IMG/VR virus record: IMGVR_UViG_3300035703_000044
Location: 1 to 64,000 of that record
Source of the DNA: a virus
DNA length: 64,000 nt
Direction: 5' to 3' (one strand)
Below the pieces are notes generated by a model. That model was not told where the DNA came from, did not search any database, and saw only the letters and a list, made by a program, of their open reading frames with translations. Shown piece after piece: positions 1,667-37,816 of the stretch. The position numbers and the translations under genes were made by a program. Numbering within the stretch: position 1 is the stretch's first letter; every line of letters begins with the position of its first letter.

Positions 1667-3049
1667 ATGTTAAATCCATTTTTTCTTCAAGGATCAAAAT
1701 CTGAGCAATCGTTAGTTCAAAGTTTAATTAACGAACAACTTCGCATGTATGGTGTTGAGGTTTATTATATTCCAAGAAGATATATCACAGAAAAGACTAT
1801 TATAAAAGAGGTCATTGAATCCAAATTTGATAATGCGTATCCTTTAGAAGCATACGTGGATACTTATGATGGATATGAGGGTCAAGGTACTATTCTTTCA
1901 AAGTTTGGTGTTCAACCACTGAATGATTTGAACTTGATAATATCAAAAGAAAGGTTTGAAACTTACATCTCACCTCTTATAAAAAATATACCAGATATTA
2001 AACTATCCACAAGACCAAAGGAAGGAGATTTAATTTGGTTTCCATTGGGGGATAGATTATTTGAAATTAAGTTTGTCGAACATGAAAAACCATTTTATCA
2101 ACTCCAAAAAACTTACGTTTATGAATTGAGATGTGAACTGTTTAGATATGAGGATGAAGTTATTGATACTGGTGTTGAAGAAATTGATGATAATGTAAAA
2201 GACGATGGTTATATTCAATCTCTAACTATGGTTGGTGCAGGAGTTACTGCAACAGCTGTAACTGGAATAGTAAATGGTGGGGTGAGATTTATCACTGTTA
2301 CAAATAGAGGAAACGGATATAAATCGGTTCCAAGAGTAGCAATATCTTCAGCTCCAATCGGTGGACTTACTGCGGTTGGAATTGCAACACTTATTGGTGG
2401 ATTGGTTGATTGTAATGGAAATACTGAAAATTATAAAGTTCAAGGTGTTGAAGTTGTAAATCCAGGATATGGATACACTGTTGCACCATCAGTTACATTT
2501 GTCGGTGGCGGAGGTGCAGGAGCTGCGGCAACAGCAACCATTGGTAATGGTGTTGTTGGTATAATTACTTTAACCTCTGGTGGTTCTGGATATGTTGGAG
2601 AACCAACGGTAACATTTAGTGGTGCGCCAGGGGCGGGAATAACTGCAACCGCGAGAGCTCATGTAAACACTGCAGGTGTTGTAACGGCAATTTATATAAC
2701 AAATGCCGGACTTGGTTATACAGATACTCCAACAATAACTATTTCATCACCATATTCATCTGGATCAGGAACTTATATTTACAATGAAACAGTGGTTGGA
2801 AGTATAAGTTCCACTACTGCAATAGTTAAAGAATGGAATTTGGTTGACAGTGTATTGAAGGTATCAAATATTTCAGGATCTTTTGTAAATGGTGACGTAT
2901 TAACTGGTTCAAAATCTGGTGCAACATATGAAGTAAGGATAGTGGACGGATATAATAGAACTGATAGATATGCGGAGAATGATACAATAGAAACTGAAGC
3001 TGATGCAATTATAGATTTTAGTGAGTCTAATCCTTTTGGAAATCCATAA
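1667..3049 (+). CDS. gp14: neck protein gp14 with Gly-rich repeat insertion
   Basis: 'LNPFF..EQSLVQSLINEQLRMYGVEVYYIPR', 'RPKEGDLIWFP', C-terminal 'DFSESNPFG'. Confidence 0.93.
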   Translation: MLNPFFLQGSKSEQSLVQSLINEQLRMYGVEVYYIPRRYITEKTIIKEVIESKFDNAYPLEAYVDTYDGYEGQGTILSKFGVQPLNDLNLIISKERFETYISPLIKNIPDIKLSTRPKEGDLIWFPLGDRLFEIKFVEHEKPFYQLQKTYVYELRCELFRYEDEVIDTGVEEIDDNVKDDGYIQSLTMVGAGVTATAVTGIVNGGVRFITVTNRGNGYKSVPRVAISSAPIGGLTAVGIATLIGGLVDCNGNTENYKVQGVEVVNPGYGYTVAPSVTFVGGGGAGAAATATIGNGVVGIITLTSGGSGYVGEPTVTFSGAPGAGITATARAHVNTAGVVTAIYITNAGLGYTDTPTITISSPYSSGSGTYIYNETVVGSISSTTAIVKEWNLVDSVLKVSNISGSFVNGDVLTGSKSGATYEVRIVDGYNRTDRYAENDTIETEADAIIDFSESNPFGNP

Positions 3050-3074
3050 ATAGTTTATCATAATCTCCTGACAA

Positions 3075-4073
3075 ATGTTTGAATATTTTTACCACGAGAT
3101 ATTAAGAAGAACTATTGTCTCTTTTGGTTCTTTGTTTAATAATATTTCAATTAAACATACAAACAACTCAAATGATGTTGTAAGTCATACTAAAGTTCCT
3201 CTTGCATACGGACCAATCCAGAAGTTTTTAGCAAGATTAGAACAAGCACCAAACTTAAATCAACCAGTTCAAATGTCATTACCCAGAATGTCATTTGAGT
3301 TCACTGGATTGACATATGACACTTCAAGAAAGGTAACTACAACTCAAACATTTTTATCTACTATAACTTCTGATAAGACTAAACCAAGAAAGTCTTATAT
3401 GCCAGTGCCTTATAATATGTCATTTGAACTTAGTATTATGACTAAGTTAAATGATGATATGCTTCAGATTATTGAACAGATTATTCCATATTTCCAACCT
3501 GCGTATACAATGAGTGTTGATCTTGTTGAAACCATTGGAGAAAAAAGAGATATTCCTGTTGTTCTTGAAGGAATATCAATGCAAGATGATTATGAAGGAG
3601 ATTATTCAACTAGAAGGGCACTAATTTATACTTTAAGATTTACTGTAAAGACATATTTGTTTGGACCAATCTCGGATGTTTCCAAAGATATTATCGAAAA
3701 AGTTTCTATTGGATACATTGCAGGAGATCGTACAAATACTCCAACAAGAGAAGTTACTTATTCTGTTGAACCAGTAGCTACCAAGAGTTACACTAATAAT
3801 GTTGTCACAAATCTTTCTAAGGATGTAACGGACTTAGCAACTATCATTGAAGTCAATGATGCATCATCAATTTCTGTTGGTGGAGTAATAGTTATTGATG
3901 ACGAAAACTTCAGAGTTGCTTCTAAGTCAGGAAACAAAATCACTGTTGAACGTGGATATGATGAAACATCTCCAGTATCTCATGTTTCTGGATCTGAAGT
4001 TAAACTAATCACCAATGCAGATGCAAATCTAATTCAATTTGGCGATGATTTCGGATTTAGTGGATCATTTTAA
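3075..4073 (+). CDS. gp15: tail sheath stabilizer / terminator gp15
   Basis: 'YFYHEILRRTIVSFGSLFNNI', 'VPLAYGPIQKF', 'LPRMSFE'. Confidence 0.95.
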   Translation: MFEYFYHEILRRTIVSFGSLFNNISIKHTNNSNDVVSHTKVPLAYGPIQKFLARLEQAPNLNQPVQMSLPRMSFEFTGLTYDTSRKVTTTQTFLSTITSDKTKPRKSYMPVPYNMSFELSIMTKLNDDMLQIIEQIIPYFQPAYTMSVDLVETIGEKRDIPVVLEGISMQDDYEGDYSTRRALIYTLRFTVKTYLFGPISDVSKDIIEKVSIGYIAGDRTNTPTREVTYSVEPVATKSYTNNVVTNLSKDVTDLATIIEVNDASSISVGGVIVIDDENFRVASKSGNKITVERGYDETSPVSHVSGSEVKLITNADANLIQFGDDFGFSGSF

Positions 4074-16656: not shown

Positions 16657-17271
16657 ATGGCACAAATTCCAACAAGAGGCATTTCACAATTTAAATCAAA
16701 ACTGATTGGTGGTGGAGCCCGTCCTAATCTTTTTGAAGTTGATATCACATTTCCAGCTGGTGTAAACCTTGGAGTGCAGGGAGACGGAACTGGTCAGTTT
16801 GATAAAGAAAACTTCCGTTTTCTTTGCAAAGCTGCTGCACTTCCAGCATCAAACGTTGCTGCAATTGAAGTACCTTTCAGAGGTCGTACTCTGAAAGTTG
16901 CTGGAGATAGAACGTTTGATGTTTGGACCGTAACTGTAATTAATGATGAAAACTTCTCACACAGAAGAGCATTTGAAGCATGGATGCAAAACCTTGGACA
17001 ATATGGTGATCACTCAGGTTTAACAAACCCAACTGATTACATGGGACAAGCAGTTGTTTATCAACTGGGTAGAAGTGCATCCAACCAGCAAGGTAATAAC
17101 ACCACTGGTGAAGATTCCAGAATTCTTGCACAATATCGTTTCATTGACATCTTCCCAACTGCAGTTTCTGCAATCGATCTTTCTTATGATACGACTGACA
17201 CGATTGAAGATTTCACAGTTGATTTCCAAGTTCAATACTACTTCCCAGAAGCTCCAGGAACTGGAGCATAA
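16657..17271 (+). CDS. gp19: tail tube protein gp19
   Basis: 'GGARPNLFEV', 'VPFRGRTLKVAGDRTFDVWTVT'. Confidence 0.97.
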   Translation: MAQIPTRGISQFKSKLIGGGARPNLFEVDITFPAGVNLGVQGDGTGQFDKENFRFLCKAAALPASNVAAIEVPFRGRTLKVAGDRTFDVWTVTVINDENFSHRRAFEAWMQNLGQYGDHSGLTNPTDYMGQAVVYQLGRSASNQQGNNTTGEDSRILAQYRFIDIFPTAVSAIDLSYDTTDTIEDFTVDFQVQYYFPEAPGTGA

Positions 17272-32896: not shown

Positions 32897-33391
32897 ATGA
32901 AGAAAAATTATGATGGAGTTTATAATTTCAATTCCAGTATAAACTCCGAAAATTTTGAAACCCTTTACTCTTCAAATAATACTGATGTAATTCATTTTTC
33001 TGAAATTACTCTTCCAGCAATGAACTTTGAAATTTCTGACTCCACTCCTTCAACATTTAATTTGAATATGAATACTACTAATCATCTTTGGAAATACGAT
33101 GAAGATAAAATCCTGAAAGATATTCAGGAATATGTTACCGGCACATATAAGAGTCATTATTGTGGTCAGGAAGCAAACTACAAAGACATTCAAACTATTG
33201 ATCTGATGGCAGCAAAAGAACTTGCTGCAAACTTCTGCCAAGCAAACATTCTCAAGTATGGTAGTCGTTATGGATCAAAGGATGGTCGTAATAAGATTGA
33301 CCTTATGAAAGTTATCCATTATTCTATGCTTCTTCTGCATTTTGATGGACATTATTCTCGAAAAGATAATGGTCTGACTGAATTCCGTTGA
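32897..33391 (+). CDS. DUF3310-like hypothetical protein
   Basis: 'HY...IQTIDL...FCQANILKYGSRYGSKDG..DLMKVIHY'; start uncertain. Confidence 0.65.
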   Translation: MKKNYDGVYNFNSSINSENFETLYSSNNTDVIHFSEITLPAMNFEISDSTPSTFNLNMNTTNHLWKYDEDKILKDIQEYVTGTYKSHYCGQEANYKDIQTIDLMAAKELAANFCQANILKYGSRYGSKDGRNKIDLMKVIHYSMLLLHFDGHYSRKDNGLTEFR

Positions 33392-33393
33392 TT

Positions 33394-34080
33394 ATGAAAC
33401 TCCAAGACAAAACTATGAAACTCTCTGACAAAACTCTGACTCTTCTCAAGAACTTTTCTTCCATCAATCAATCCATTCTTTTCAAGGAGGGAAATTGTCT
33501 TCGTACAATTTCTGTGATGAAGAACATTCTTGCCGAAGCTACAATTGAAGAAGAACTCCCTAAAGATTTTGGTATCTATGATCTGAATCAGTTTCTGAAT
33601 GGACTCAATCTTCATCAGAACGCAGAACTTGATTTCCAGAATGATGGATATGTAGTAATCAAAGAAGGTAAGTCTCGCTCAAAGTATTTCTTTGCAGATC
33701 CTAATGTAATTGTTACTCCTCCAGAAAAGGATATTGTTCTGCCTAGTGAAGATGTTTGTTTCCTTCTTGATACCAAAGAACTTGATAAACTCCTTAAGGC
33801 TGCTGCTGTTTATCAACTGCCTGACTTGTCTGTGGTTGGTGAAGCTGGTGTGGTGAAACTGGTGGTTCGTGATAAGAAGAACGATACGTCTAATGATTTT
33901 TCCGTGATTGTTGGTGAAACTGATGAAGTGTTTACCTTCAACTTTAAGGTTGAAAACATCAAGATTCTTCCTGGTTCCTACGAGGTAGTCATCTCTCGTA
34001 AACTTCTGTCACGATTCAAGAATACTGGGTTCAATGTGACTTATCATATTGCTATGGAGCCTGATTCTACATTTGGTTGA
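33394..34080 (+). CDS. gp45: sliding clamp gp45
   Basis: 'MKLSDKTLTLLKNFSSINQSI', 'FGIYDLNQFL'. Confidence 0.96.
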   Translation: MKLQDKTMKLSDKTLTLLKNFSSINQSILFKEGNCLRTISVMKNILAEATIEEELPKDFGIYDLNQFLNGLNLHQNAELDFQNDGYVVIKEGKSRSKYFFADPNVIVTPPEKDIVLPSEDVCFLLDTKELDKLLKAAAVYQLPDLSVVGEAGVVKLVVRDKKNDTSNDFSVIVGETDEVFTFNFKVENIKILPGSYEVVISRKLLSRFKNTGFNVTYHIAMEPDSTFG

Positions 34081-34592
34081 TGAACATCTTTGTCACTTCC
34101 CCCTGGCCTGCTGAGAGTGCCATCTGTCTTCCAGACAAACACATCGTTAAGATGCCCCTAGAATGCTGCCAGATGCTCTCTATCGTGGCATCAGAGAAGT
34201 GGGGACATGGGTATGGCACTCTCCCTAAGACCGATGGAACCCCCTACAAGACCGATAAAGGAGCATTCCGCAATCATCCCTGCACTAAGTGGGCATTGGA
34301 GAGCATCCATAATGCCTACTGGTTAATCAAATGGGGATTGAACTTGTCCGATGAATACTGCCTGAGGTATAATAAAACTCACTCCTGTTACAAAACTCTT
34401 GTGGATGCATACTATTTGTTTCCCAAAGGTAAGATTACAGAGGTGACTCCATTTGCTCGTGCTATGCCTGAGGAATGGAAGTTTGACGACACTATTGATA
34501 CATTTGAAGCATACAAAAGATACATCGCATCCAAACCTTGGGTGAAGGACAACTACCTCCGTATGCCTGAAAGGCGACCATCTTGGGTGTAA
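34080..34592 (+). CDS. pyrimidine-dimer DNA glycosylase / endonuclease V-like protein
   Basis: 'MNIF......SA..LPDKHIVKMPLECCQMLS', 'NHPCTKW', 'FARAMPEE'. Confidence 0.7.
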   Translation: MNIFVTSPWPAESAICLPDKHIVKMPLECCQMLSIVASEKWGHGYGTLPKTDGTPYKTDKGAFRNHPCTKWALESIHNAYWLIKWGLNLSDEYCLRYNKTHSCYKTLVDAYYLFPKGKITEVTPFARAMPEEWKFDDTIDTFEAYKRYIASKPWVKDNYLRMPERRPSWV

Positions 34593-34608
34593 TAAATAAT
34601 AATGCCTG

Positions 34609-34674
34609 GTTTGTTCGCACTTTTCAGGTGGGAGAGTATTTTACTCTCCCTTATAAATAGTAATGCGAACAAAC
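34609..34674 (+). promoter_or_regulatory. late promoter TATAAATA enclosed by inverted repeats, upstream of the endonuclease
   Basis: GTTTGTTCGCA (34609-19) / TGCGAACAAAC (34664-74); inner hairpin 34630-34650; TATAAATA 34652-59. Confidence 0.75.
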
Positions 34675-34686
34675 AACAGAGCAGAA

Positions 34687-35256
34687 ATGTATTACACTTA
34701 CGCCTATTTGCGTGAAGATGGAACTCCTTATTATGTTGGTAAAGGTAAAGGAGACCGTGCATATAGAAAAGTAGGAAAACCTTGTGCTACTCCAAAGGAT
34801 AAAAGTAAAATAATATATCTCAAAACAAATCTTACAGAAGAACAATCATTCAACCACGAAAGATATATGATTTTTATTCTTGGTAGGAAAGATTTGGGAA
34901 CTGGTATTTTATTAAACAAATCTGATGGTGGAGAAGGTGCAAGTGGGTGTATTCCAAGTGAAGAAACCAGAAGAAAAAGAAGTGTAAAAATGAAGGGGGA
35001 AAATAATCCTTTGTATGGTAAAAGAGGTAAAGATAGTCCTCGTTATGGTAAAAAACATACACAAGAAACAAAGGATAAAATAAGAAAATCTTTACAAGGT
35101 AATGTCATTTCGGAAGAAACTAGAATAAAGATTAGTGAAAAAAATAAACTAAATCGTCTTGGAGAAAAAAATCCTTTTTATGGAAGAAAACATAGTGAGG
35201 AGACAAAACAAAAAATGAAGGAGGCGGCAAAAAGAAGAAAAGAAAAAGGTGATTGA
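34687..35256 (+). mobile_element. free-standing GIY-YIG homing endonuclease with NUMOD3 repeats
   Basis: 'YYTYAYLREDGTPYYVGKG..R', 'LLNKSDGGEG', repeated 'NP(L/F)YGKKH(T/S)EETK.KI'; alternative start at 34663. Confidence 0.85.
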
Positions 35257-35301
35257 TTTCTACTGATTTGTATGATAAACTAAACCTGATTGGATTTGAT
35301 T

Positions 35302-35745
35302 ATGACTAACATAGAAACCTATGCGATTGATGAACTCACCAGAATTGGAATGTATAGTTCTGGTGATGAGATGAATGATGCGATGTGCGAACACATTCTT
35401 AAAATTGTGAATGTCTTTGCCGAAGAAGGACACTCTGGATTTTCGGCAAATTATGCTATCAATATTCTTCAAAAACTTCTACGATTTGAACCACTTTCTC
35501 CTTTGACTGGTGAGGATGATGAGTGGAAATTGTGTGAATATAGTGATAGAGAAACCTACCAAAACAAAAGATTTAGTAGAGTATTCAAGGAAGGTAAAGA
35601 CGGACAAGCATATGATATGCAAGGTAAAGTATTTGTAGAACCTAATGGTGCTTCTTATACTAGTCGTGATAGTTGTGTGTATATTGAGTTTCCTTATACA
35701 CCTAAAACTGAATATGTGAATGTTGAAAATCAACCTCTGGATTGA
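35302..35745 (+). CDS. conserved hypothetical phage protein
   Basis: 'EGHSGFSA', 'PLSPLTGEDDEW', 'YQNKRFSRVFK'. Confidence 0.7.
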   Translation: MTNIETYAIDELTRIGMYSSGDEMNDAMCEHILKIVNVFAEEGHSGFSANYAINILQKLLRFEPLSPLTGEDDEWKLCEYSDRETYQNKRFSRVFKEGKDGQAYDMQGKVFVEPNGASYTSRDSCVYIEFPYTPKTEYVNVENQPLD

Positions 35746-35753
35746 ACTAAATT

Positions 35754-36698
35754 ATGGCAAGTGAATTTCTTCTCACGGAAAAGTATCGTCCCCAAGTAAT
35801 TGAGGATTGTATTCTTCCAGATGAAACTAAAAAAACATTTAAGGAGTTTGTAGAGAAGGGTGAGATTCCGAATCTCCTTCTTGCAGGACCTCCTGGTATT
35901 GGTAAGACAACCATTGCCAAAGCATTATGTAACGAACTGGGTGCAGATTATTATGTCATCAACGGATCCGACGAAGGACGTTTCCTGGATACTGTACGGA
36001 ACCAAGCAAAGAACTTTGCTTCGACCGTCTCACTTACGGGATCTTCTAAACACAAGGTCATCATCATCGATGAGGCAGATAACACGGGGAACGACGTACA
36101 ACTCCTTCTACGGGCAAATATTGAGACGTTTTATAACAACTGTCGATTCATCTTCACCTGCAACTACAAGAACAAAATCATTGAACCTCTACATTCCCGA
36201 TGTGCTGTCATTGACTTCACAATCAAAGGAAAACAACGGGTTCAACTTGCAGGAAGTTTCTTTCAACGACTTCAATCAATCCTGGATCAGGAGAAAATTG
36301 AGTATGATCAAAAGGTCGTTGCAGAACTCGTATCCAAGCACTTTCCCGATTTTCGACGTGTTCTGAATGAGATTCAACGATACTCTACTGGTGGTAAAAT
36401 TGACTCGGGTATTCTTGCTTCATTCTCTGATGTTTCGATAAATGATCTCGTTAAAAGTCTCAAAGAAAAGAACTTTGCGGAAGTTCGTAAGTGGGTCGTC
36501 AATAATCTTGATAATGACTCTAGTGTATTACTCCGTCGTCTTTACGATGTTTTACTTACATCCCTTGAAAACCCTAGCATTCCTGCTGCTGTGCTCATTA
36601 TTGCTAAGTATCAGTATCAAATCGCCTTCGTTGCCGATCAAGAAATTAATCTTTTGGCGGCGTTAACTGAAATTATGTGTGAGTGTGAATTCAAATGA
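35754..36698 (+). CDS. gp44: clamp loader large subunit gp44
   Basis: 'EKYRP', 'GPPGIGKTT', 'IIDEAD', 'LHSRC', 'FPDFRR'. Confidence 0.97.
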   Translation: MASEFLLTEKYRPQVIEDCILPDETKKTFKEFVEKGEIPNLLLAGPPGIGKTTIAKALCNELGADYYVINGSDEGRFLDTVRNQAKNFASTVSLTGSSKHKVIIIDEADNTGNDVQLLLRANIETFYNNCRFIFTCNYKNKIIEPLHSRCAVIDFTIKGKQRVQLAGSFFQRLQSILDQEKIEYDQKVVAELVSKHFPDFRRVLNEIQRYSTGGKIDSGILASFSDVSINDLVKSLKEKNFAEVRKWVVNNLDNDSSVLLRRLYDVLLTSLENPSIPAAVLIIAKYQYQIAFVADQEINLLAALTEIMCECEFK

Positions 36699-37816
36699 TA
36701 TTGAGTGAAGAAGATGCAATTTATGCAGCGAATAAATTCATCGATTACTTCTCTAATATGGGGAGAATTGATGAGTATTTACGTAATATTAAACTGGATA
36801 GAATGAATCAAATGCCTTCATCCATCTTAGGCATTGGTCCTGAAGATGATATGTTTGATGCATTTGATATGCACCCTCAAGATATGAACTTTAAGGTTTA
36901 TACTGCTGGGGAGAAAGGTGGATTTACCAATGAATACTTCAATGAGAGACTTCAGGTTACCACTTCCCACGCAATTGAGGATAGTATTCCTGGTAAATCT
37001 TTAAAGTGGATTGTAATGGAAACCAATACACAAAAGATTGTTGGTTTCTGTCGGTTTGGTTCTCCTACAATTAATTCAAAACCACGCAATGATTGGCTTG
37101 GTCAAACACCAGAACTTTCCCGATTCAATCGTCATGCAATCATGGGATTCATTATTGTTCCCACTCAACCTTTTGGATTTAATTATCTTGGAGGTAAACT
37201 CCTTGCACTTCTCTGTTGTTCTCACACCGCTCGTGAAACCTTAAATAAGAAGTATGGTGCAGATATTTGTTCTTTTGAGACAACCTCTCTTTATGGATCT
37301 ACCAAGGCCTCATCTCAGTATGATGGTTTAAAACCGTATATGAGGTATAAGGGACTGACACAGAGTGACTTTACTCCTCTGCTCCATGACGAAATCTTTC
37401 AAGAGTTAAACAAATGGTTTATTCAGAGGAACAACAACCAATCTCTAGTGAAGGAGGATGCATCCAGTCGCAAACTCAAAACACAACAGAAGATGATTGC
37501 AATCATCAAGAAAAGCTTACCTTCTCAAAAGGTTGCGGAGTTCCAGACTGCGATTGTAAATGCAAAAAATCTAACTGAACAAAAAAGATTTTATATCTCA
37601 GACTATGGGTTTGAGAATGCTCGTGAAGTAATTCTTGGACAGGAAGATGTTTTACGTCCTGGTCAAAATTATGAGAAGTTTCATTTTGATAATCTTGTCA
37701 ACTGGTGGAAGAAAAAGGCTTCTAATCGATATGAAAGTCTTAAGACTGATGGAAGACTCCGTACTGAACTTGAGACTTGGAATAAAAATCCTGATGCAAT
37801 TGATATTATCCGATGA
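36695..37816 (+). CDS. DUF4338 (DruA-like) domain protein
   Basis: 'IVGFCRFGSP', 'PFGFNYLGGKLLA', 'ETTSLYG..SQY'. Confidence 0.6.
   Translation: MILSEEDAIYAANKFIDYFSNMGRIDEYLRNIKLDRMNQMPSSILGIGPEDDMFDAFDMHPQDMNFKVYTAGEKGGFTNEYFNERLQVTTSHAIEDSIPGKSLKWIVMETNTQKIVGFCRFGSPTINSKPRNDWLGQTPELSRFNRHAIMGFIIVPTQPFGFNYLGGKLLALLCCSHTARETLNKKYGADICSFETTSLYGSTKASSQYDGLKPYMRYKGLTQSDFTPLLHDEIFQELNKWFIQRNNNQSLVKEDASSRKLKTQQKMIAIIKKSLPSQKVAEFQTAIVNAKNLTEQKRFYISDYGFENAREVILGQEDVLRPGQNYEKFHFDNLVNWWKKKASNRYESLKTDGRLRTELETWNKNPDAIDIIR

Follow-up and report, generated by a model that had tools for sequence, protein, structure and literature searches.

The stretch of DNA analysed here, called the window in the following, comprises 64,000 nucleotides (nt; positions 1 to 64,000 of the IMG/VR virus record IMGVR_UViG_3300035703_000044) and derives from a T4-like cyanomyovirus. 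Between a denV-like gene for a pyrimidine dimer DNA glycosylase (34077-34592; Pfam PF03013, E = 4e-15) and a free-standing homing endonuclease gene encoding 189 amino acids (34687-35256; NUMOD3, E = 2.1e-22) lies a leader of about 100 nt, which combines two late-promoter boxes, two complementary arms, a small stem and a GC-rich hairpin. The denV-like gene would be the source of read-through transcripts into this leader. We estimate a probability of roughly 80% that the leader acts as a portable translational mask on the endonuclease gene, with a late promoter nested inside the masking structure. The anatomy of the leader, its fold energies, its covariation, the conservation of both late boxes and the mobility of the whole cassette were all observed in silico. 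The parts of the leader described below, the denV-like gene, the endonuclease gene and the 18-nt repeat behind it lie on the plus strand.

The leader begins with late box 1, AATAAATA (34591-34598), a putative late promoter (P1) with a predicted transcription start at G34604. A preliminary description of this DNA had placed an ATAAATA box at 34592, and the heptamer indeed reads from 34592 to 34598; with or without the preceding A (34591), the box overlaps the TAA stop codon (34590-34592) of the denV-like gene. It is followed by GCCUG (34604-34608), the 5' half of a small stem (stem 1), which in the folds also pairs with CAG.GC (34677-34682) further downstream. The 11-nt arm A, GTTTGTTCGCA (34609-34619), one half of an exact inverted repeat, is located in the loop of stem 1, and the 3' half of the stem is CAGG(U) (34625-34629, with CAGG at 34625-34628), which competes with the leader for GCCUG. 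The block of CCTG (34605-34608), 11-mer and CAGG had been given correctly in the preliminary description. The same is true of the 9-bp inner hairpin (34630-34650), whose strands GGGAGAGTA (34630-34638) and TACTCTCCC (34642-34650) enclose a loop of 3 nt; as RNA they read GGGAGAGUA and UACUCUCCC and are followed by UUAUAAAU. Late box 2, TATAAATA, was likewise found where it had been described (34652-34659) and is a putative late promoter (P2) for the translatable endonuclease mRNA, with a predicted start at G34665. Arm A', TGCGAACAAAC (34664-34674), would constitute the 5' end of the P2 transcript, and an inverted-repeat search identified it as the exact reverse complement of arm A, as had been claimed. 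The last part is the conserved leader sequence AACAGAGCAGAA (34675-34686), the presumed ribosome-binding region, in which CAG.GC (34677-34682) forms the base of the predicted mask.

Box 2 (34652-34659) is situated between arm A and arm A', and this arrangement is the same in all aligned homologues. The geometry TAAATA-N5-R is identical at both boxes. In T4, the box of a late promoter occupies positions -13 to -6. By this rule, the long helix formed by the arms and their flanking bases runs from the predicted start of box 1 (G34604) to the predicted start of box 2 (G34665). The sequence NATAAATA is the late-promoter consensus of cyanomyoviruses (PMC2984593). Within the window, all 25 ATAAATA heptamers are found on the plus (coding) strand and none on the minus strand, while about 19 would be expected over both strands together; this is as expected of working late promoters.

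The gene behind the leader is, as judged from its sequence, a free-standing NUMOD3/GIY-YIG-like homing endonuclease gene. In its product, an N-terminal GIY-YIG-like domain precedes three NUMOD3 repeats (E = 2.1e-22). The residues Y5, Y16, G18, E58 and N77 are invariant and R24 is near-invariant, which corresponds to the Y..Y, YxG, R, E and N of GIY-YIG proteins. The protein did not reach the threshold of Pfam PF01541 (GIY-YIG). A profile search against the PDB gave a weak match to a GIY-YIG protein (E = 0.034), and the top Foldseek matches of the predicted fold were UvrC GIY-YIG domains, also weak (E = 0.17, TM score 0.5 on the target). The gene carries DNA-binding modules of the I-TevI type, and it is a free-standing insertion that the relatives S-SCSM2R and S-SRM01 do not have in the interval from the denV-like gene to gp44. 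The conserved start of the protein (MYYTYAYL...) corresponds to ATG 34687, 12 nt past arm A'. Another ATG at 34663, which opens the mechanically called open reading frame (ORF), sits upstream of the predicted box-2 transcription start.

Folding of read-through and late RNA, a check proposed in the preliminary description, gave two different states of the leader. Read-through RNA (34560-34720) has a predicted energy of -57.8 kcal/mol, compared to -32.7 +/- 3.6 kcal/mol for shuffled sequences (z = -6.9), and none of 200 shuffles was as stable. In this RNA and in RNA starting at box 1, arm A' is predicted to be completely paired (probability of being unpaired 0.00), whereas it is open in the box-2 transcript (0.90). 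The same tendency holds for CAGAGCA in the presumed ribosome-binding region, with 0.15-0.29 in read-through and box-1 RNA versus 0.66 in the box-2 transcript. The predicted mask helix comprises about 16 bp (34604-34619 with 34665-34682) and covers positions -22 to -5 relative to AUG 34687. In these models, the ribosome-binding region would therefore be sequestered by the 3' arm on any RNA that carries the 5' arm. The read-through fold also contains an outer pairing of GTGTAATA (34587-34594) with TATTACAC (34690-34697), which is probably incidental, because the homologues do not share it. A possible mini-ORF running through the hairpin was rejected as well, since inspection of the homologues showed no conservation.

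To an inverted-repeat count, the two 11-mers alone are unremarkable in 64 kb: two exact, non-palindromic 11-nt inverted repeats at most 80 nt apart are present in the window, and about one is expected (64000 x 80 / 4^11). The other one is CATCAAACGTT / AACGTTTGATG at 16847-16857 / 16911-16921, with a spacing of 53 nt. It is the context that lifts the pair in the leader above chance, because of the fold z-score, the covariation described below, the strand bias of ATAAATA, and the number of late boxes flanked by inverted repeats in related loci.

A protein scan of viral contigs yielded 80 homologous loci. The same leader is found in most of the homologues, with protein identities as low as about 45%, and about 50 leaders share its layout. 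From 5' to 3', this layout consists of a late box, 5 nt, a purine and a stem of 4-7 bp with a variable arm in its loop. Directly adjoining is a GC hairpin of 7-13 bp, usually with a GNRA or UUCG loop, then the second late box, again 5 nt and a purine, the complementary arm, AGAG(C/U)AGAA (the consensus of 32 aligned leaders) and the ATG. The arms are wholly different between copies and yet complementary within each of them; examples are TTGAACCGCA, AACTGACTGCA and TTGGTTGGC. Covariation of the 11-mers upstream of homologues had been suggested as a further check, and the complementarity is indeed kept. Given the alignment of the 32 leaders, RNAalifold found the long helix unaided, with compensatory changes in 13 of its 14 pairs, including all nine pairs (9/9) of the arm A part. 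Overall, 94.3% of the cells of the long helix are paired and 82 cells show double changes, and neither value was reached in any of 500 shuffles; with the register slid as a control, only 28-47% of the cells were paired. The compensatory changes indicate that the pairing is under selection.

The long helix extends beyond the 11-mer. UGC or UAC before stem 1 covaries with GCA or GUA in AGAG(C/U)AG, which indicates that GCCUG (34604-34608) pairs with CAG.GC (34677-34682) in the window copy. In particular, the G or A at the predicted box-1 start covaries with the C or U of AGAG(C/U)AG (GC in 17 leaders, AU in 13). The scan by which these leaders were collected required box 2, so that the invariance of this box in the alignment has to be read accordingly. 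Box 2 was recovered again by another scan, for which a single late box between inverted arms was sufficient: late boxes flanked by inverted repeats of at least 9 nt occurred 73 times in the related loci, compared to four times in shuffled controls.

Three further parts of the layout are conserved. Box 1 was present as TAAATA at a distance of 5 nt from stem 1 in 33 of 34 elaborate cassettes that had been found without requiring it. Stem 1 formed in all single-sequence folds of the leaders (32/32), and its covariation in the aligned sequences is modest: the fixed columns contain 12 double-change cells versus 4.4 +/- 1.9 in shuffles (0/500 reaching this number), in an alignment that was not fitted to stem 1. 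The stem sequences of the inner hairpin differ between copies while the pairing is kept. The terminator rule of the scanning tool, a T-tract after the hairpin, applies to 28 of 31 distinct cassettes; it fails for the window copy, L001 and L084. In the window, the 9-bp stem is followed by TTATAAAT instead of a T-tract, and no terminator was called here, either by the scan or by a scripted version of the same rule.

We propose the following mechanism. RNA entering from upstream, either by read-through from the gp45 and denV-like genes or by a start at box 1, would carry GCCUG and arm A (34604-34619). These would pair with arm A' and CAG.GC (34665-34682) to form the mask, which would lie inside the footprint of the initiating ribosome and leave the endonuclease untranslated. 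Until A' has been transcribed, stem 1 would keep arm A accessible in its loop. Box 2 would be used late in infection, and its transcription would begin at about G34665, past the masking arm, and the open leader of this RNA would allow translation. The inner hairpin probably shields the endonuclease gene against transcription arriving from upstream, part of which probably ends at this hairpin in most members of the family. For the window copy, it is most likely that box-1 transcripts read through and are masked in cis, because the hairpin followed by UUAUAAAU does not satisfy the terminator rule. A cis mechanism like that of I-TevI had been one of two possibilities in the preliminary description, and it is strongly supported in silico, since the arms flank a late promoter, the helix reaches the conserved purine-rich stretch ahead of the AUG and covaries in dozens of homologues, and the box-2 RNA, which would lack the 5' arm, has a leader that is predicted to be free. 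The activity of the promoters, the sites at which transcription starts, the translational block and termination are inferred.

Some observations weigh against this mechanism. The start codon AUG 34687 itself is largely open in the masked state (predicted probability of being unpaired 0.79-0.90), and the presumed ribosome-binding stretch AGAGCAG is only a weak match to a Shine-Dalgarno sequence. Furthermore, box 1, stem 1 and the inner hairpin are conserved parts that are superfluous to a plain cis mask. A purely cis-acting mask leaves unexplained the second late box exactly at the base of the helix, and it also leaves the retention of stem 1 unexplained. Finally, efficient termination at the hairpin, should it occur in most members, would leave few RNAs with both arms.

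These superfluous parts could have a function if box 1 and the hairpin together were the gene for a late RNA of about 50 nt (34604 to about 34654), beside or instead of the cis mask. Its loop-exposed arm A would pair in trans with the first 18 nt or so of the box-2 mRNA and throttle translation in a cassette-specific manner. We regard such an RNA as a minority option, although several properties of the cassettes speak for it. Box 1 keeps its fixed spacing of 5 nt and, as a putative promoter, is absent from nuclease-free relatives; its predicted start coincides with the base at which stem 1 and the long helix both begin; stem 1 is retained with its modest covariation; and a terminator-like hairpin with a T-tract is found in most cassettes. 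Arm A is presented in a loop of 16 nt, and in cofolding calculations its duplex with the mRNA amounts to -21 kcal/mol, with a net free-energy change (ddG) of -13.4 kcal/mol after opening of stem 1. Cognate duplexes average -21.5 kcal/mol and non-cognate ones -8.9 kcal/mol. The preliminary description had put forward the same RNA as its second possibility; the box, stem and hairpin are conserved among the homologues, and no terminator was called in the copy for which the RNA was proposed. Its label as an antisense or toxin-antitoxin-like module fits poorly, because the putative RNA would come from the same strand, in tandem with the gene, and would owe its complementarity to an inverted repeat.

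It is conceivable, if rather unlikely, that each cassette encodes its own RNA of about 50 nt, with the variable loop as a private address for the first bases and the ribosome site of its own endonuclease mRNA. Equally tentative is the idea of a same-strand programmable brake acting in trans, in which the diversity of the arms would be maintained against cross-talk within one genome. In five records with two to six cassettes, arms are predicted to pair less strongly with non-cognate partners than they do in random sets (-7.1 vs -8.8 kcal/mol, P about 0.016), with P values of 0.007-0.016 over such comparisons. However, the pool for this comparison holds near-identical orthologous cassettes, and a plain test of arm distance was not significant (P = 0.135); for these two reasons, the orthogonality is suggestive only. 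The hairpins of cassettes within one genome were no more alike than random ones. Other results argue against a separate RNA. The window hairpin is followed by UUAUAAAU, has no T-tract and fails the terminator rule. A second class of leaders (L016, L020, L033 and others) presents the arm in a loop without having a box 1, which means that loop presentation needs no separate RNA. Stand-alone or partial modules were not detected at E values up to 5 in 352 kb of loci, and a full-text literature search found no report of such an RNA. Action in trans is compatible with the cis mask, and for the window copy it would be a weak proposition, perhaps one chance among several.

It is quite improbable that the inverted arms act as DNA, be it as an autorepression operator or as a recombination or target-mimic site, with the RNA pairing being incidental. 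There is a precedent in I-TevI, for which the operator bound by the protein overlaps the late promoter of its own gene and is similar to its homing site (PMC2988022). Arm A' also overlaps the predicted box-2 start, and the arm sequences vary between nucleases, as specificity determinants would. However, a comparison of the box-2 region with the nuclease-free junction gave at best 13 of 20 matching positions, which is not above chance (shuffle mean 13.6-13.9). Moreover, the pairing tolerates G-U, reaches into the transcribed leader and shows strand-specific covariation, all of which points to RNA. The homing enzymes of the GIY-YIG family bind as monomers, and this mode of binding gives no reason for arms that are 44 nt apart. 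A mere chance inverted repeat beside an ordinary terminator hairpin and promoter, without any regulatory role, would agree with the expectation of about one spaced repeat in 64 kb against the two present, but is contradicted by the covariation across 32-36 leaders, the excess of flanked late boxes over shuffles and the fold z-score, and we give it practically no credence.

Judged by its distribution among sequences, the 100-nt leader of our preferred masking mechanism is a widespread, portable control cassette. A covariance model (R1) run on the viral contigs detected six complete cassettes in S-SRM01, four in each of two other records (G001 and G010), two in each of two further records, and one in the 93.7-kb contig to which the window belongs. 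Cassettes were seen ahead of GIY-YIG/NUMOD3 genes, of a second divergent family (MQPRIYTYKITF...) and of an HNH-like ORF. S-SRM01 (MW015081.1; loci L083-L088) is a cultured freshwater Synechococcus phage, and its six cassettes have six different arm pairs. Three to four of them share a nearly identical inner hairpin. The nuclease genes of this phage carry the annotation 'translation initiation factor 2', probably an error caused by the Lys/Glu-rich NUMOD3 repeats. For annotation purposes, the cassette reliably points to free-standing nuclease genes and to the correct start codons of these genes.

The second leader class mentioned above is found on related GIY-YIG genes (L016:2583-2690, L020:2908-3015 and L033:2905-3015; also L052, L054 and L079). 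Its members share a conserved frame, GGGGCA...GUAAGUCCCC, and an inner stem whose loop contains the arm; they have a single late box and no box 1, and the complementary arm extends nearly as far as the AUG. These leaders matched no Rfam family, and no group I intron was detected around them at the gathering score. One of the loci, L020, additionally carries a PhotoRC-II RNA at 209-305. Plain hairpins with a late box in the loop, located directly before an ATG, were seen at L002:577-640, L018:770-830, L014:1365-1410 and in L030 (minus strand, ORF 2497-3093). The ORFs behind them include one Pfam GIY-YIG/NUMOD3 protein and one HNH-like/helix-turn-helix protein. By analogy, these plain hairpins would represent the same control in its simple T4-style form, within the same set of contigs.

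The endonuclease gene is inserted at the 3' end of the denV-like gene. In S-SCSM2R and S-SRM01, which have no nuclease gene at this place, the stop codon of the denV-like gene is located directly before gp44 or a small ORF, and there is no late box after the denV-like gene in these two relatives. Therefore, the whole module, box 1 included, entered together with the nuclease gene. Within the subfamily of the window, the frame and the stop codon of the denV-like gene vary, and the box around which these frames end is unchanged. Comparison with S-SRM01 and S-SCSM2R also revealed an 18-nt repeat of the denV-like 3' end (KPDWI, stop), AAACCTGATTGGATTTGA, downstream of the nuclease gene (35281-35298). 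Going by its sequence, this repeat is probably the right edge of the insertion; it is comparable to L082:2211-2228 and L081:2100-2130. The functional denV-like gene now has a diverged end, RRPSWV-stop. Together, the repeat and the diverged end suggest that the nuclease gene was inserted at, and perhaps targets, the 3' end of the denV-like gene. A similar repeat closes an ORF of 41 amino acids in S-SRM01. A megablast search of phage records returned no match for the nuclease-leader locus.

The surroundings of the locus further include gp45 (sliding clamp, 33388-34080) upstream of the denV-like gene and gp44 (clamp loader, 35754-36698) downstream of the insertion. Between the 18-nt repeat and gp44 lies a Tad3-like gene (35302-35745; Pfam PF25185, type I Thoeris inhibitor, E = 2.4e-43). 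It is absent at the same position in S-SCSM2R and S-SRM01, and it may consequently have arrived with or beside the nuclease cassette. A DruA-like ORF (36695-37816; PF14236, E = 6e-10) is found between gp44 and the next replication gene.

Homing endonucleases must stay quiet to persist in a phage genome, and the T4 combination of a hairpin with a nested late promoter is one way of achieving this. Such masks have been described for I-TevI, I-TevII, I-TevIII, segB, mobE of Aeh1 and the T4 genes e and soc (PMC2988022). The cyanophage cassette resembles these T-even and Aeh1 masks in three respects. On early, middle or read-through RNA, the ribosome-binding region is buried in a hairpin, and a late promoter inside the structure gives rise to late transcripts without the 5' arm, both of which are predicted here; moreover, the gene under control encodes a selfish nuclease of a T4-like phage. 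In contrast to the known masks, the cyanophage cassette presents its 5' arm in the loop of a conserved small stem and has an additional GC hairpin between the arms, which is terminator-like in most copies; it also has a second conserved late box, whose predicted start coincides exactly with the base of the helix. The AUG of the cassette is mostly unpaired, and the whole 100-nt unit travels between different nuclease families. It represents the T4 logic in aquatic cyanophages, as a self-contained module that moves with several nuclease families. Its freely re-coded pairing arms also make it a natural, well-sampled case of RNA helix covariation.

Hairpins in the 5' untranslated regions of free-standing endonuclease genes ('fractured genes') have previously been reported from marine metagenomes (Dassa et al. 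2009; PMC2677866). Ten of these hairpins contain TATAAATA, and two mutually complementary motifs were described. This set, too, consists of marine, probably phage-derived GIY-YIG and Vsr-like endonuclease genes with hairpins before the start codon. Compared by description, these are single hairpins, for which no second promoter, loop-presenting stem or terminator was reported, unlike the cassette described here. Among Rfam families, none reached the gathering score for the leader; the potC RNA (RF01751) matched 34607-34676 with 20 bits against a gathering score of 44 and was rejected. It has in common with the leader an outer helix around an inner hairpin, which is a likeness of topology and not membership.

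A link between a non-coding RNA and a homing endonuclease gene already exists in a T4-like cyanophage. CfrI of S-PM2, an antisense RNA of about 225 nt and the nearest case in the literature searched, was detected experimentally (Millard et al. 2010, as reported in PMC2984593). The putative RNA discussed above would be similar in this respect. As far as it is described in that report, CfrI comes from the opposite strand and extends across psbA and the endonuclease gene, whereas the proposed RNA would be only about 50 nt long and derive from the same strand, in tandem with its target. If the additional promoter and the hairpin do release such a small RNA, this would be a new form of self-control of a mobile element, a cognate same-strand brake in tandem with its gene, and the cassettes would provide a natural set of orthogonal RNA-RNA pairs. 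The core of the mechanism is already known from T4; the portable cassette with its two promoters, the loop-presented arm and the terminator is a new elaboration of it.

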